Below, piece after piece: positions 14,434-22,373 of a stretch of 29,547 nucleotides of DNA. Under the pieces are notes generated by a model, which saw nothing but the letters and a program-made list of their open reading frames with translations, ran no database searches and was not told the DNA's origin. A program made the translations under genes and the position numbers. Position 1 is the stretch's first letter. Each line of letters begins with the position of its first letter. The DNA comes from an uncultured Elusimicrobium sp. (GTDB taxonomy: Bacteria > Elusimicrobiota > Endomicrobiia > Endomicrobiales > Endomicrobiaceae): positions 1 to 29,547 of the forward strand of contig CACWKJ010000003.1 in NCBI GenBank assembly GCA_902761395.1, in the 5' to 3' direction.

Positions 14434-15669
14434 ATGGAAAAGATAGATGCTCTTATAAGTTTGGATTTGGGTACAAGTTCTATCCACGGAGTAATTGCAA
14501 AAATAAACGAAGAAAATAAAATAGAAGTTTTGTCTGCGGATACATATGCTTCCGACGGAGTAAAAAACGGAGTAATTTCCGATATCGGTGCCGCGGAATT
14601 TACCGTAAAGAAATTTTTATCTAAAGCGGAAGAAGAATTTAATGTGGAAAATGTAGATTTATTGTGTGCCGTAAGAGGTGCTTTAATAGAAGTTAACAAT
14701 GCCAACACGAGAATGAAAATAGATGAAGAAGAAGGCGGTGTTGTTACCGACCAAACGGTTGCCGAACTTATGGAAAGATTGGAAGAAGGACACAAAATTC
14801 CCGACACAAAAGAAATAATAGATATAATTCCGCAACAATACAAAATAGATGAACAGGTAGTACAAAATCCTATTCGTATGAGCGGAAAACATTTGGAATT
14901 AACGGCTCTTGTTATTTCCGGAACAAAAAGTAATATGTCTAACATTAAACAGGCAACGGGCGGCGATAAATTAAGATACGGATACAGTTCCATTTCCGAT
15001 ACTTTGGTTTCCAACGACGATAAAGATTTGGGTTGTATATTGATAGATATCGGCGGTATGACAACAGGTATAGTTGTTTATGCCGAAGGTAAACTGAAAC
15101 ATTCTTTTGAGTTGGATTTCGGTTCCGATTATATTACAAGAGATATTGCCGCAAAACTTAAAATTACAAAAAAAGAAGCGACAAACATAAAAGAAAAATA
15201 CGGTTGTGTTTTGGAAGATCTTATAACCGAAAACACTGCATTCGAATATACGGTTCCGGGAAACAAAACACAGAAATATACCGTTAGAGATTTGATAGAT
15301 ATAATAAAACCTCAGGTTGAGGTACAATTGGACGAAATAGAAAAAGTATTCAAAAAGAAAGGTATTGTACCGGGTGAATATGTCGGAGGTTTTATTCTTA
15401 CCGGCGGAGGTTCTTTGCTCAAAGGTATGCCTGAAGCTTTTTCAAAATATTTCGAAGCGGTTACAAAATGCGCAAATTTCACCGATGAAGATTTTATATG
15501 TTACGATGATAATATAATAAATTCTCAAATTTATACTACGGCTCTTGCCTTGCTTAAAAATAACACAAAAAATTTGAGTACATCGGGTATGTCGGAAAGA
15601 AAAACCCGTAAACAGAAAGGACCCGGATTTATGGATACCATGAAATCTTGGTTCAGCAATTTTAAATAA
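14434..15669 (+). CDS. ftsA: Cell division protein FtsA (divergent)
   Basis: LDLGT, IIPQQYKID, PIRMSG, IDIGG and LTGGGSLLKG, with a C-terminal amphipathic helix FMDTMKSWFSNFK. Confidence 0.9.
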   Translation: MEKIDALISLDLGTSSIHGVIAKINEENKIEVLSADTYASDGVKNGVISDIGAAEFTVKKFLSKAEEEFNVENVDLLCAVRGALIEVNNANTRMKIDEEEGGVVTDQTVAELMERLEEGHKIPDTKEIIDIIPQQYKIDEQVVQNPIRMSGKHLELTALVISGTKSNMSNIKQATGGDKLRYGYSSISDTLVSNDDKDLGCILIDIGGMTTGIVVYAEGKLKHSFELDFGSDYITRDIAAKLKITKKEATNIKEKYGCVLEDLITENTAFEYTVPGNKTQKYTVRDLIDIIKPQVEVQLDEIEKVFKKKGIVPGEYVGGFILTGGGSLLKGMPEAFSKYFEAVTKCANFTDEDFICYDDNIINSQIYTTALALLKNNTKNLSTSGMSERKTRKQKGPGFMDTMKSWFSNFK

Positions 15670-18280: not shown

Positions 18281-19384
18281 CTATATAATTGTTTTTCCGG
18301 ACTCAAGTTCAAATAAATGAATCTTTTTCAAATCAAAAACCAACTCTATAACCTGGTTGGGTTTCGATTTATTATTTGAATCCACTTTTGCAACCATTAT
18401 GTTTTTGCCGGTATTAAAATGCAAATAAATTTCGCTTCCCAAAGGTTCAACTATATCTACCGTTGCGGAAAATCCGCTGACTACCTGATGGGAAATACTT
18501 GCAAAAAGTTTATCGTAAATATCTTCAGGTCTTACACCCATAACGATTTTTTGATTAACAAACGGTTCAACTTTCTCTTTCATAAAGTCGGGAACTTTAA
18601 CATCAAAAGAACCTTCTTTTAATACTAAACCGTCATTTTCTTTATATACTTCAACATTAAAGAAATTCATCGGAGGTGTTCCTATGAAACCTGCAACGAA
18701 TTTGTTTGCCGGTTTATCATAAAGTTCCAACGGACCTGCTATTTGTTGAATAATACCGTCTTTCATTACACAAATTTTGTCACCCATTGTCATAGCTTCT
18801 GTTTGGTCGTGGGTAACATATATCATTGTACTTTGTAATCTTTCATGCAATTTTTTTAATTCGGCTCTCATTTGAACTCTTAACTTTGCATCAAGGTTGG
18901 AAAGAGGTTCATCGAATAAAAATACTTTAGGTTTCCTTACAATTGCTCTACCTACTGCAACTCTCTGTCTTTGTCCGCCGGAAAGTTGTTTTGGTTTTCT
19001 GTCCAACAAGTGGGCAATACCCAAAATGTCGGCAGCTTCTTTAACTCTTTTATCTATTTCTGCTTTATCATAACCTTTAAGTTTTAAAGCAAAGGCCATA
19101 TTTTGGTAAACTGTCATATGAGGATACAAAGCATAGTTCTGGAAAACCATTGCTATATCTCTGTCTTTTGGAGGAACATCATTAACTCTTTTGCCGTCTA
19201 TAAATATATCACCTGCGGTAATATCTTCAAGACCTGCAACCATTCTCAAAGTTGTGGTTTTACCGCAACCGGAAGGTCCTACGAGAATACAAAATTCTTT
19301 ATCTTTAATTTCCAAGTTAAAATCTTTAACGATTTTAACATCGCCATAACTTTTGTATACATTCTTTAAAATAATTTCGGCCAT
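18281..19384 (-). CDS. Sugar ABC transporter ATP-binding subunit (MalK/MsmX/UgpC family)
   Basis: GPSGCGKTT, FQNYALYPH, LSGGQRQR, DEPLSNLDA, YVTHDQ and a TOBE domain. ATG 19384 has a GGAGG SD. Confidence 0.93.
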   Translation of the reverse strand: MAEIILKNVYKSYGDVKIVKDFNLEIKDKEFCILVGPSGCGKTTTLRMVAGLEDITAGDIFIDGKRVNDVPPKDRDIAMVFQNYALYPHMTVYQNMAFALKLKGYDKAEIDKRVKEAADILGIAHLLDRKPKQLSGGQRQRVAVGRAIVRKPKVFLFDEPLSNLDAKLRVQMRAELKKLHERLQSTMIYVTHDQTEAMTMGDKICVMKDGIIQQIAGPLELYDKPANKFVAGFIGTPPMNFFNVEVYKENDGLVLKEGSFDVKVPDFMKEKVEPFVNQKIVMGVRPEDIYDKLFASISHQVVSGFSATVDIVEPLGSEIYLHFNTGKNIMVAKVDSNNKSKPNQVIELVFDLKKIHLFELESGKTII

Positions 19385-19428
19385 TAATTCCTCCAAAACA
19401 GCTACAAAAATACGATTGTTAGAATAAA

Positions 19429-19457
19429 ATTATATACTTTTGAAAAAAGATAGTCAA
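19429..19457 (-). promoter_or_regulatory. Sigma70 promoter for the MsmX-like gene
   Basis: TTGACT-17 nt-TATAAT on the minus strand. Confidence 0.65.
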
Positions 19458-19523
19458 TAAAAAATTGCCAAAAGCAATTTGTTGAAGAATAGAAGACCGG
19501 AGGTATAGAGGTATAGAAACAAA

Positions 19524-19592
19524 TAGATTGCCACAGGGCTAAAGCCCTTCGCAATGACAAGAGTTGTCATTACGAGCGAAGCGAAGTAATCC
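19524..19592. repeat. Head-to-head pair of GTC-tagged palindromes
   Basis: Minus copy GTCATTGCGA-AGGGC-TTTA-GCCCT-GTGGCAATCTA (19524-19558) and plus copy GTCATTACGAGCGAAGCGAAGTAATCC (19566-19592). Confidence 0.8.
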
Positions 19593-19669
19593 ATGTAGTT
19601 GCTGTTTCCATACATCCATGCGTCCATACATCCATTCTTCAAAAAATCGCAAAGCGATTTTGTTCAGGT

Positions 19670-19698
19670 TTGACACATTTTCCTATATAATGTAAAAT
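19670..19698 (+). promoter_or_regulatory. Sigma70 promoter upstream of the trpB2 leader
   Basis: TTGACA-17 nt-TAAAAT. Confidence 0.65.
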
Positions 19699-19706
19699 AA
19701 AAAGAT

Positions 19707-19778
19707 ATGTTTTACGAATATAACAAAACTTATATACAAGATTTTTTGTTTCAAAAGAATTTTGAGTTTCGATGGTGA
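19707..19778 (+). CDS. Putative 23-aa leader peptide MFYEYNKTYIQDFLFQKNFEFRW
   Basis: ATG is 8 nt after the predicted -10. 9 of 23 residues are aromatic, and the ORF ends CGA-TGG-TGA just upstream of trpB2. Confidence 0.4.
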   Translation: MFYEYNKTYIQDFLFQKNFEFRW

Positions 19779-19834
19779 AAAATATGCTGTTTCAGTATTT
19801 TTAACCGAAAAAAACTCAAAAGGAGAATTTTATT

Positions 19835-21211
19835 ATGTCAAAATTAAATAACAGTAAAAAAATAATGTTAAGTGAAGAAGATATACCTAAACAGTGGTAT
19901 AACATACAGGCGGATTTGCCTCATCCTTTGGAACCTGCTTTCAATACAAGAACAGGAAAAATCGCAACAAAAGAAGATTTATGCCAAATTTTCCCGGAAG
20001 CAATTGTTGAACAGGAAGTAAGCAGAGAAAGATGGATAGATATTCCGGACCAGGTAAGAGATGCTTACAAGATATGGAGACCGTCTCCTCTTATAAGAGC
20101 AACGAATCTCGAAAAGTATTTGGATACACCTGCAAAAATATACTTTAAAAACGAAGGTGTAAGTCCTTCCGGCAGCCACAAATCAAATTCCGCAATAGCA
20201 CAAGCTTATTATAATATGAAAGCCGGAACAAAAAGAATAGCAACCGAAACAGGTGCAGGTCAGTGGGGTTCGGCTCTTGCTATGGCTTGTAAAATGTTCG
20301 GTATAGAATGCGTGGTATATATGGTAAAAGTTTCTTTCCAACAGAAACCTTACAGAAAATCTCTTATGCAGGTTTACGGAGCAAATGTTTATGCAAGTCC
20401 TTCAATGCAAACCGAAGCAGGAAGAAAAGTGTTGGAAAAAGATCCAAACTGCACAGGTTCTTTAGGTATAGCAATATCCGAAGCAATTGAAGATGTATTG
20501 ACACACGAAAATGCAAAATATTCGTTGGGCAGTGTATTAAATCATGTTGCAATGCACCAAACTGTTATAGGTTTGGAAGCAAAGAAACAGTTGGAAATGG
20601 TAGATGAATATCCTGATATAGTAATTGCTTGTTTGGGCGGCGGTTCGAATTTCTCGGGTTTGGCATTTCCTTTCATAATGGATAAGATAAACGGAACACA
20701 TAAAAATTTAAGAGCAATAGCAGCGGAACCTTCGGCATGTCCTAAACTTTCCAAGGGTGTATATGCTTACGATTACGGTGATTTGTCAGGTTTTACACCT
20801 GCATTTAAAATGTATACATTAGGTCATACATTTATGCCGAGCGGGATACATGCCGGCGGATTAAGATATCACGGAGCATCACCTTTGGTTTCTGCAATAG
20901 TAAAAGAAAAACTTGCAGAATCCGTAGTGGTAAAACAAAGAGAAGTTTTTGAAGCGGCGGTAACTTTCGCAAGATGCGAAGGAATACTTCCCGCACCGGA
21001 ATCTTCTCATGCAATAAGAGTAGCAATAAACGAAGCATTAAAAGCAAAAGAAGAAGGCAAATCTAAAACTATATTGTTCAATTTGTCAGGTCACGGACAT
21101 TTTGATTTAACCGCTTACGAACAATATTTGGCAGGAAAAATTCAGGATTGCAATTATTCCGAAGAAGAAGTTCAAAAAGCATTAAAAGATTTACCGAAAG
21201 TAAACTTATAA
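19835..21211 (+). CDS. trpB2: TrpB-like PLP-dependent enzyme (TrpB2)
   Basis: WYNIQADLP, WRPSPL, SGSHK, TETGAGQWG, GGGSNF, HAGGLRYHG, PAPES and FNLSGHG. Confidence 0.93.
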   Translation: MSKLNNSKKIMLSEEDIPKQWYNIQADLPHPLEPAFNTRTGKIATKEDLCQIFPEAIVEQEVSRERWIDIPDQVRDAYKIWRPSPLIRATNLEKYLDTPAKIYFKNEGVSPSGSHKSNSAIAQAYYNMKAGTKRIATETGAGQWGSALAMACKMFGIECVVYMVKVSFQQKPYRKSLMQVYGANVYASPSMQTEAGRKVLEKDPNCTGSLGIAISEAIEDVLTHENAKYSLGSVLNHVAMHQTVIGLEAKKQLEMVDEYPDIVIACLGGGSNFSGLAFPFIMDKINGTHKNLRAIAAEPSACPKLSKGVYAYDYGDLSGFTPAFKMYTLGHTFMPSGIHAGGLRYHGASPLVSAIVKEKLAESVVVKQREVFEAAVTFARCEGILPAPESSHAIRVAINEALKAKEEGKSKTILFNLSGHGHFDLTAYEQYLAGKIQDCNYSEEEVQKALKDLPKVNL

Positions 21212-21215
21212 ACAA

Positions 21216-21314
21216 CAATTTATAATTTACAATGTACAATTTTTGATAAATAATTAGATTTTTTGCAAAGCGAAAAATACATTAATTATCAATTATAAAT
21301 TTTAAATTATAGAT
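21216..21314. repeat. Inverted degenerate heptamer runs flanking a small hairpin
   Basis: CAATTTA/TAATTTA/CAATGTA/CAATTTT, then TTTTTGC-AAA-GCGAAAAA, then AATTATC/AATTATA/AATTTTA/AATTATA. Confidence 0.5.
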
Positions 21315-21338
21315 TAAAAGATATGGAGTATTTGTATT

Positions 21339-22373
21339 ATGGCTAACAAGACAGGGATTATTTGTACAATGGGACCTTCCACAAGGTCTGCAAAAATAAT
21401 AAAGAGTCTTTCCGATAACGGAATGACCGTTGCAAGACTCAATTTTTCTCACGGAACTTTCGAACAATACGAAAAAGATATTGCTTTAATAAGATCCGTA
21501 AACAAGAAGTATAAAAGAAACATTAAAATTTTAGGTGATTTGGAAGGACACAGAATAAGAATAGGTATGTTGGAAGGCGGAAAACCTGTTGCACTGAAAA
21601 AAGATCAAAAGGTTGTACTAACCAACAAAAAACTTATAGGAAACTCAAAAACTCTTTCAATAGATTATTCCGGTCCTATGTCCGATTTAAAAAAAGGACT
21701 TGAAATTTTTATAGATGACGGGAACTTAAAACTTACCGTTGTATCTGCCGGTAAAGATTCCGTTACAACCGTAGTTGGAATGGATTATCTTTTAAAAGAA
21801 CATAAAGGTATAAACATACCTGCCGCAAAATTACATTTCCCGGAAATTGAAGAACACGATAAAAAACATATTGATTTTGCAATAAAAAACAAACTCGATT
21901 ACATTGCAAACTCGTTTGTAAGAAACAAATCCGATATGAAATATTTGAAGAAAATAGTTTCTCAACAACATCCGAAATGTCAACTTGTGGCAAAAATCGA
22001 AGACAGAGAAGGAATAGATAATGTTGCTTCAATTCTTGAAGTTTGCGACGGTATAATGGTTGCAAGAGGCGATATGGGAATATCTATTCCGTTATGGACA
22101 GTTCCGGTGGTTCAAAAATATATCATAAGAAAATGCAGATCAAGGCAAAAATTTGTTATAACAGCAACACAAATGCTTGAAAGTATGGTGGAAAATCCGG
22201 TTCCTACAAGAGCCGAAGTAAGCGATGTCGCAAATGCAATTATAGACGGCAGCAATTTTGTAATGTTGTCTGCGGAAACCGCCGTAGGAAAATATCCTGA
22301 AAAAGCAGTTGCAATGATGGGCAATATAATAAAATTTACAGAAAAAAATATTTACAGATTACCGTTGGTATAA
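21339..22373 (+). CDS. pyk: Pyruvate kinase, short form lacking the C-terminal alpha/beta domain
   Basis: ICTMGPS, ARLNFSHG, SFVR, AKIE, MVARGDMG, ATQMLESM, PTRAEVSDVANA and MLSAETAVG. Confidence 0.93.
   Translation: MANKTGIICTMGPSTRSAKIIKSLSDNGMTVARLNFSHGTFEQYEKDIALIRSVNKKYKRNIKILGDLEGHRIRIGMLEGGKPVALKKDQKVVLTNKKLIGNSKTLSIDYSGPMSDLKKGLEIFIDDGNLKLTVVSAGKDSVTTVVGMDYLLKEHKGINIPAAKLHFPEIEEHDKKHIDFAIKNKLDYIANSFVRNKSDMKYLKKIVSQQHPKCQLVAKIEDREGIDNVASILEVCDGIMVARGDMGISIPLWTVPVVQKYIIRKCRSRQKFVITATQMLESMVENPVPTRAEVSDVANAIIDGSNFVMLSAETAVGKYPEKAVAMMGNIIKFTEKNIYRLPLV

Follow-up and report, generated by a model that had tools for sequence, protein, structure and literature searches.

It has been proposed, in an initial annotation made from sequence alone, that the trpB2 gene of an uncultured Elusimicrobium sp. 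(Endomicrobiaceae) is preceded by a leaderless Trp leader peptide and an attenuator, in which a ribosome stalled at the terminal Trp codon would cover the 5' arms of a hairpin and of a long-range helix and thereby switch the gene on. Whether this view is sustained by comparison with relatives, and by which mechanism such control might operate, is the question raised by this locus of the window, that is, of the whole stretch of 29,547 nucleotides analysed here. Every element on which the proposal was built, namely the promoter, the 23-codon ORF, its CGA-TGG-TGA end, the hairpin, the complementary arms and the overlap of the 3' arm with the Shine-Dalgarno (SD) sequence, is present at the position assigned to it (Table 1). 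The promoter scores 11 of 12, the highest value found by a promoter scan on the plus strand of 19300-21500, and its sole equal is the divergent minus-strand promoter of an ABC ATPase gene. Trp is the last or nearly last codon in leaders of this kind, in the window the stop codon TGA (19776-19778) follows directly after TGG, and the two arms of the helix, here called P1, are 10 nt long and 100% complementary. With regard to the gene itself, its product scores 734.6 bits (cut-off 366) and 655 bits (cut-off 518.85) against the NCBIfam TrpB2 models NF009057 and TIGR01415, respectively, and does not reach that of TIGR00263, the model for canonical trpB (169.4 vs a cut-off of 392.45), indicating that it encodes a TrpB2-type enzyme.

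Table 1. Features of the trpB2 leader region in the window, together with the T-box of the trp operon in the same genome.
Feature	Position	Strand	Remarks
Sigma-70-type promoter	19670-19698	+	-35 TTGACA 19670-19675, 17-nt spacer, -10 TAAAAT 19693-19698
Leader ORF	19707-19778	+	23 codons + TGA, without Shine-Dalgarno; ATG 8 nt past -10 box
Codon pair Arg CGA (19770-19772) and single Trp TGG (19773-19775)	19770-19775	+	Conservation, codon rarity
P1 5' arm	19760-19769	+	Within last leader codons; complementarity, RNAalifold consensus, pair counts
Inner hairpin + T-run	19784-19802	+	ATGCTG 19784-19789 / CAGTAT 19793-19798, T's 19799-19802; weak, doubtful terminator
P1 3' arm	19812-19821	+	Overlaps first two bases of Shine-Dalgarno
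Shine-Dalgarno AAGGAG of trpB2	19820-19825	+	9 nt before ATG
trpB2, TrpB-like PLP enzyme, 458 aa	19835-21211	+	NF009057, TIGR01415, Pfam PALP
trp operon T-box	G000 contig C8, ~15070-15360 (locus L052:119-412)	-	RF00230

Judged on the window sequence alone, the RNA structure is marginal and hardly beyond chance: a perfect inverted repeat of at least 10 nt occurs in 4.1% of composition-matched shuffles, and the 91-nt fold of -17 kcal/mol (z = -1.62) is matched by 14 of 200 shuffles. It is because of the relatives, and not because of the window alone, that the structure is counted here as more than chance.

The DNA on either side of the leader and its gene has peculiarities of its own. An insertion of ~190 bp (19470-19660) lies between the promoter of the ABC ATPase gene and the divergently oriented one of the trpB2 leader; it is missing from the orthologous spacer of genome G003 (L007) and contains 8-bp tandem repeats, GAGGTATA x2.2 and TCCATACA x3.6, as well as a GC-rich hairpin repeat at 19540-19590. 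Other species of the window's genus possess different repeat-rich inserts at the same site, just 5' of the -35 box. On the 3' side of trpB2, the pyruvate kinase gene (21339-22373) encodes the barrel domain only, a product of 344 aa which aligns to positions 2-338 of a 476-position model and is without the usual C-terminal domain.

To place the leader among its relatives, the upstream regions of all TrpB2 loci were read in 89 species genomes of Endomicrobiaceae. TrpB2 is encoded by 39 of these 89 genomes and is absent from 44 reduced genomes of genus g2, and a short leader ORF precedes trpB2 in 26 of the 39, representing rumen and gut Endomicrobiaceae of several genera with TrpB2 identity down to 76%. 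All 26 leaders begin with ATG, extend over 18-25 codons to one Trp codon and stop 1-17 codons later, at 22-70 nt 5' of the trpB2 ATG; each contains one Trp codon and no more, and this TGG is invariant (26/26). Wherever a C(G/T)ATGG block is found in the upstream region, an in-frame ORF accompanies it: an in-frame ATG located 17-26 codons upstream, with a stop-free path between, is present in 17 of 17 representatives compared to 1.6-4.3% of shuffles, and, with one exception, both remaining frames of these representative leaders are closed. A profile HMM made from the 26 peptides and applied in a six-frame search of the 89 genomes returned 26 matches at E <= 2e-4, one per genome, each directly 5' of trpB2 and nowhere else. 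The next matches (E >= 0.005), weak ones in G010 and G096, were rejected as leaders on inspection, as was an Arg-Trp block look-alike revealed by a motif search on contig C39 of the window's own genome, which is located inside the signal peptide of a real gene. A genome-wide scan for promoter-proximal short ORFs before long genes detected no further amino-acid-type leaders. The alignment of trpB2 upstream regions which the initial annotation had recommended thus recovered a uORF, a Trp codon and a helix that are conserved in 26 species genomes, with compensatory changes present; the lack of conservation of the uORF and its Trp codon, named at the time as an outcome that would speak against the proposal, was not observed across these genomes.

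Further variants of the leader design occur on rumen metagenome contigs, and the leader ORF was not found in order-level relatives nor in ~64 distant TrpB2 loci. Being missing outside the family and patchy inside it, the leader appears to be a family-specific invention of which several lineages of Endomicrobiaceae have since been deprived by loss. In 13 genomes of the family trpB2 stands without an intact leader (11 have none, one has a degenerate copy and one is unreadable), indicating that the leader is dispensable. The 11 loci concerned are L010, L014-L016, L019, L021, L036, L042, L043, L046 and L051, several of which have a promoter directly before trpB2. The degenerate copy, in G023 (L017), reads Val-Gln-Trp and has no ATG, and the unreadable case is that of G002, whose contig begins inside trpB2.

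That the leader can be dispensed with in about one third of the trpB2-bearing family genomes, and that it offers a single Trp codon, would also be in line with a constitutive uORF which sets basal trpB2 expression by translational coupling or mRNA stabilisation, without any amino-acid sensing. However, the Trp codon is invariant in leaders of a family where, as determined for the window's genome, Trp amounts to 0.77% of codons, the element is linked to a Trp-synthesis gene only, and the sequence that masks the ribosome binding site always adjoins the Trp codon, so that a purely constitutive function is considered very unlikely.

The amino acid sequences of the leaders provide signs that the frame is used. 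Their C-termini read Phe/Leu-Glu-Phe-Arg-Trp in genera g1, g5 and g12, Pro-Gly-Phe-Arg-Trp followed by the stop codon in g10, g29 and part of g11, and Ser-Glu-(Phe/Leu/Ile)-Arg-Trp with five extra codons in g8, the Arg before Trp being kept in 25 of the 26. The last codons vary at their wobble positions (Gly as GGG, GGC, GGT or GGA; Pro as CCC, CCG or CCT; Phe as TTT or TTC), which is the signature of a translated frame, and translation of the leader ORF may be assumed on this basis. Periodicity over the whole ORF is weak (entropy 1.03, 1.04 and 1.16), the mid-part of the peptide is variable and its aromatic bias matches the AT-rich composition; for these reasons selection on the whole peptide is not claimed.

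In 21 of the 26 leaders a promoter scoring ~10-12 of 12 is located 8-14 nt before the ATG of the uORF, and this ATG is not preceded by a Shine-Dalgarno sequence. A transcript beginning ~7 nt 3' of the -10 box would have a 5' UTR of ~1-8 nt, and of 1-3 nt in the window. Promoter spacing and absence of an SD together make it plausible that the leader ORF is leaderless or nearly so.

The second conserved component is the long-range helix. RNAalifold analysis of 16 distinct sequences of group A returned P1 as the only consensus element, in which nine bases just 5' of CGA are joined to bases just 5' of the Shine-Dalgarno. Two pairs are changed on both sides (G:C to A:U and U:A to A:U), and in a 12-pair version of the helix 87% of cells are paired. 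The covariation score of P1 is 0.149 as compared to 0.082 +/- 0.014 in shuffles and is reached by none of 500, for a set of related sequences with few compensatory changes. A control in which the pair count is slid by +1 does no worse than the true register, the P1 arms being A/U runs, and the support that pair counts lend to P1 is best regarded as moderate.

In relatives, the GG or GGAG of the Shine-Dalgarno is found inside P1. Leaders of the Pro-Gly group have, inside the ORF, an anti-SD CUCC that pairs with GGAG; a GGnUUU block pairs with AAAnCC, and at the Phe wobble base of this pairing U:A has been replaced by C:G in L040. The anti-SD of g8 is situated 4-12 nt 3' of the Trp codon. In 19 of 26 leaders, the segment that pairs best with the SD region is found between -20 and +15 nt from the Trp codon, as compared to ~32% expected for a uniform distribution; the remaining seven comprise six leaders of the window's own subclade, in which the partner segment nevertheless contains the P1 arm, and this arm belongs to the partner in 25 of 26 leaders overall. 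Across lineages, therefore, the sequence masking the ribosome binding site is the segment that a ribosome waiting at UGG as its A-site codon would hold. The window's own subclade provides the least complete example, as only the AA of its AAGGAG takes part in P1, GGAG remaining unpaired. When SD accessibility was modelled with a masked footprint, this subclade showed no gain (0.56 free vs 0.51 stalled), and the mean of the 26 leaders rose modestly from 0.33 to 0.47 on stalling; the model is given little weight because the A/U-rich upstream sequence pairs spuriously in it. A comparison of cognate and non-cognate duplexes (-13.5 vs -11.2 kcal/mol) was hardly discriminating, because SD and anti-SD sequences are common to all leaders.

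These observations argue for a ribosome-mediated translational attenuator of trpB2 which senses tryptophan supply via Trp-tRNA, a reading that we hold to be probable. From the conservation described above we infer that the leader ORF is translated, that ribosomes stall at UGG, that P1 limits initiation and that Trp-tRNA is the signal. According to this proposal, transcription would begin a few bases before the leader AUG, and the short ORF would be translated without a Shine-Dalgarno sequence. On free mRNA, the last leader codons would pair at or just 5' of the trpB2 SD, forming P1 and lowering initiation at trpB2. Under a shortage of charged tRNA-Trp, the ribosome on the leader would pause with CGA as its P-site codon and UGG exposed in a vacant A site, and its footprint would occupy the 5' arm of P1 together with the beginning of the inner hairpin; with this arm held, the SD would stay single-stranded and TrpB2 would be made. 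When tryptophan is plentiful, the ribosome would pass UGG and terminate 1-17 codons later, allowing P1 to re-form. Among the points that count against the attenuator, each leader has one Trp codon only, and in the subclade to which the window belongs part of the SD is left uncovered by P1; the result of the slid pair count, the small number of compensatory changes and the family genomes that do without an intact leader are to be added.

The inner hairpin and its T-run suggest another way in which the same stalled ribosome might act, namely classical transcription attenuation, where hairpin and T-run would be an intrinsic terminator, a ribosome at UGG would cover the 5' arm and permit readthrough, and P1 would be secondary. 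For example, a good hairpin with a U-run follows the Trp codon in g12 (-12 to -14 kcal/mol), L041 (-15.8 kcal/mol) and g8 (-5 to -8 kcal/mol), beginning 0-13 nt after UGG, and the window has its ATGCTG/CAGTAT stem and T's. On the other hand, the hairpin of the window's genus is weak (~-4 kcal/mol with 2 G-C pairs), that of the window fails the criteria of a terminator scan, and in L003/L142 it is disrupted despite 99% TrpB2 identity. Among the 26 leaders examined, a hairpin with U4 was not found in about half, and hairpin and T-run are left out of the RNAalifold consensus; no antiterminator alternative was found, nor was a conserved pair of terminator and antiterminator in the leaders. Moreover, the leader ORF of g12 spans the hairpin, so that ribosomes would block it whether stalled or not. 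Since the hairpin is neither conserved nor part of the consensus, control is better read as translational, and transcription termination would be a lineage-specific addition at most and not the core of the device; as its main mechanism, it is unlikely. The switch first proposed for trpB2 is thus retained with regard to the uORF, the Trp codon and the helix at the SD, all of which are conserved, and has to be given up with regard to the hairpin and T-run, which are not.

How a translational attenuator might work with one Trp codon leads to the codon before it. Arg is encoded there by CGA in 25 of 26 leaders (CTA once), whereas other Arg residues of the same leaders are encoded by AGA, AGG, CGC or CGT. 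In long ORFs of the window's genome, CGA represents 1.7% of Arg codons, or 0.5 per 1000 codons, and AGA represents 86.5%. The tRNA-Arg anticodons in the assembly are ACG, CCG and TCT, with no tRNA-Arg of anticodon TCG (UCG) among its 26 tRNAs, and the TadA deaminase is encoded in the genome (190.5 bits). Reading of CGA through inosine-adenosine wobble is usual in bacteria (PMC3711424), and in view of this tRNA-Arg set and of TadA it is presumably the way in which CGA is read in the window's genome. CGA and the preceding hydrophobic residue are conserved even where they lie outside P1. It may be speculated, although we regard this as rather unlikely, that the unit of a hydrophobic residue, Arg(CGA) and Trp(UGG) serves as an amplifier that lets a single Trp codon act as a sensor: CGA in the P site, with its inosine-adenosine wobble and perhaps together with the nascent peptide, would slow decoding of the next codon, and a slight fall in Trp-tRNA would then produce a long pause at UGG. 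As far as could be found, such a codon-pair 'hungry codon' design has no description for bacterial amino-acid attenuators, and the invariant rare CGA is the most interesting unexplained feature of the leader.

The same block could alternatively be conserved as RNA, with UUYCGAUGG and the helix binding a protein, a tRNA or a metabolite, and the ORF being incidental or used for RNA unfolding only. CGAUGG is indeed kept at the nucleotide level, the synonymous third base of CGA included, and in L018, L039, L045 and L047 its pairing with a CCAUCG-like segment further downstream surpasses that in shuffles. This pairing was set aside as a general reason for the conservation of CGA, since it is confined to some genera, to which that of the window does not belong. 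Several other observations are difficult to reconcile with an element made of RNA only: all 26 leaders, though strongly divergent, retain the in-frame ATG, the ORF length and a frame free of stops, the wobble pattern is periodic, the promoter is placed 8-14 nt 5' of the ATG as for a translated leaderless ORF, and Rfam yielded nothing relevant over the whole window, nor for the leader at E <= 10, the best match, SAM-III at 18 bits, being at chance level. We therefore consider this alternative highly improbable.

An arrest peptide of the TnaC or SpeFL kind, whose hydrophobic-Arg-Trp nascent end would stall on free tryptophan or indole, would account for the importance of the peptide end in a different manner. 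The last residues are conserved as amino acids with synonymous variation, CGA and its hydrophobic neighbour being retained outside P1 as mentioned above, and with 18-25 residues ahead of Trp the peptide would be long enough for the exit tunnel to be filled; furthermore, indole is the substrate that TrpB2 enzymes are thought to salvage. Nevertheless, invariant residues are confined to the very end, where RNA pairing imposes constraints as well, the middle is variable with an aromatic bias that fits 33% GC, and the stop codon varies in position. Four leader peptides had no match (E <= 10) to any leader or arrest family of NCBIfam, TnaC included, and induction by free Trp would be senseless for a Trp-forming enzyme. 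TnaC-type arrest peptides are characterized by a Trp ~12 residues before the stall site, an Asp and a terminal Pro. Peptide-specific arrest is thus an improbable explanation, and translational attenuation through Trp-tRNA is preferred to it.

Sensing of Trp-tRNA would not be foreign to this organism. Its genome, a 1.41-Mb assembly with 32.6% GC, also contains a complete canonical trp operon (trpE, G, D, C, fused trpF-trpB and trpA) followed by aromatic-pathway genes, and trpE is preceded by a T-box with a UGG specifier (93 bits), indicating that Trp-tRNA sensing is already used for its Trp genes. Before the trpB2 of the window there is no match to the T-box model RF00230 and none to RF00513 (Rfam, E <= 10). 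The two Trp-forming loci would consequently be served by two different Trp sensors, a T-box and a putative leader peptide.

Elsewhere, no T-box at gathering threshold was present at twenty distant bacterial trpB2 loci. In a Dehalococcoidaceae MAG (L123), a T-box with a terminator precedes trpB2 at 60-330 (79.7 bits, E 1e-17, below the Rfam gathering score), and a 16-codon ORF with Trp-Arg-Trp and its own Shine-Dalgarno is located at ~375-425 between T-box and gene, a tandem layout as in the B. subtilis anti-TRAP operon. A Methanofastidiosum sp. MAG (L101) and an uncultured Thermococci MAG (L115) have, between a phosphoglycerate mutase gene and trpB2 and ~130-225 nt 5' of the latter, an ORF (25/32 codons) ending in Trp-Trp-Trp-Arg-Tyr, with a TTTATAA box before it and a hairpin after it; it may be a Trp leader peptide, on contigs that are archaeal or misbinned. 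The initial annotation knew of no described attenuator for a stand-alone trpB2. In agreement with this, no leader before a TrpB2-type gene was found described in the literature, the only match, the 'trpB2A' operon of C. diphtheriae, being discarded as its trpB2 is a second copy of canonical trpB; control of trpB2 by Trp at the RNA level is as such not unique, as illustrated by the T-box of L123.

Compared to established systems, the leader shares with leader-peptide attenuators a short upstream ORF containing a codon for the product amino acid, and differs in having one such codon, as classical attenuators contain two or more regulatory codons. With translational attenuators it shares a predicted RBS-masking helix, one arm of which would be inside the footprint of the stalled ribosome, even if in the window's subclade only the AA is paired. 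It falls outside the trpL, T-box and TnaC families. The enterobacterial trpL (RF00513), as is proposed for the trpB2 leader, reports Trp-tRNA supply to a Trp-synthesis gene through the Trp codons of a leader peptide, but it has two of them, whereas the trpB2 leader has one, no Rfam match and no conserved terminator or antiterminator, and its output is likely translational. In ermC, in the manner proposed for trpB2, a ribosome stalled in the leader ORF opens a helix that masks a downstream Shine-Dalgarno; however, the ErmCL stall depends on a macrolide and a specific nascent peptide and not on amino-acid supply. TnaC is similar as a peptide of ~24 residues that links tryptophan to ribosome stalling, yet it responds to free Trp by means of a Trp residue located 12 positions away from where the ribosome stalls, with Rho mediating the effect, whereas in the trpB2 leader the Trp codon itself is the proposed stall site.

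In the anti-TRAP (rtpA) operon of B. subtilis, according to work attributed to Chen and Yanofsky (2003 and 2004, among the references of PMC10327191), the leader peptide rtpLP reportedly controls translation initiation of the next gene in response to Trp-tRNA charging. It resembles what is proposed for the present leader, a short Trp-codon peptide acting on translation initiation in a host that also uses a Trp T-box. It differs in its three consecutive Trp codons and in its mode of action, the terminating ribosome covering the Shine-Dalgarno without any long-range masking helix; T-box and rtpLP also stand in tandem on one transcript, whereas in Endomicrobiaceae the T-box belongs to the separate trp operon.

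The closest match for the proposed mechanism is a published precedent from mycobacteria, where ribosomes stalled on leaderless polycysteine short ORFs block structures that sequester the downstream RBS, forming a 'Cys ribulon' (Canestrari et al., bioRxiv 10.1101/834739). There, a leaderless short ORF is the first cistron and control is translational without a terminator (bioRxiv 10.1101/834739), and the probably leaderless ORF before trpB2 would act in the same way. The mycobacterial ORFs carry runs of Cys codons and constitute a regulon of Actinomycetota, whereas the leader of Endomicrobiaceae, in the phylum Elusimicrobiota, has a single Trp codon after a rare CGA, one locus per genome and an unrelated sequence.

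In conclusion, the element is most likely a family-specific, single-Trp-codon and probably leaderless leader peptide that controls trpB2 translation, operating on a known principle and belonging to a leader family for which no description was found. Recognition of its design may assist annotation, since such ORFs of 20-40 codons are missed by gene finders, and if the CGA-UGG pair makes one codon sufficient, it would offer a compact rule for building and recognising minimal amino-acid sensors. The leader would add a leader-peptide sensor to the Elusimicrobiota, a phylum whose RNA-level regulation is almost unstudied. It would also tie trpB2, the physiological role of which is debated, to tryptophan limitation, which fits a salvage or back-up role beside the T-box-controlled trp operon.
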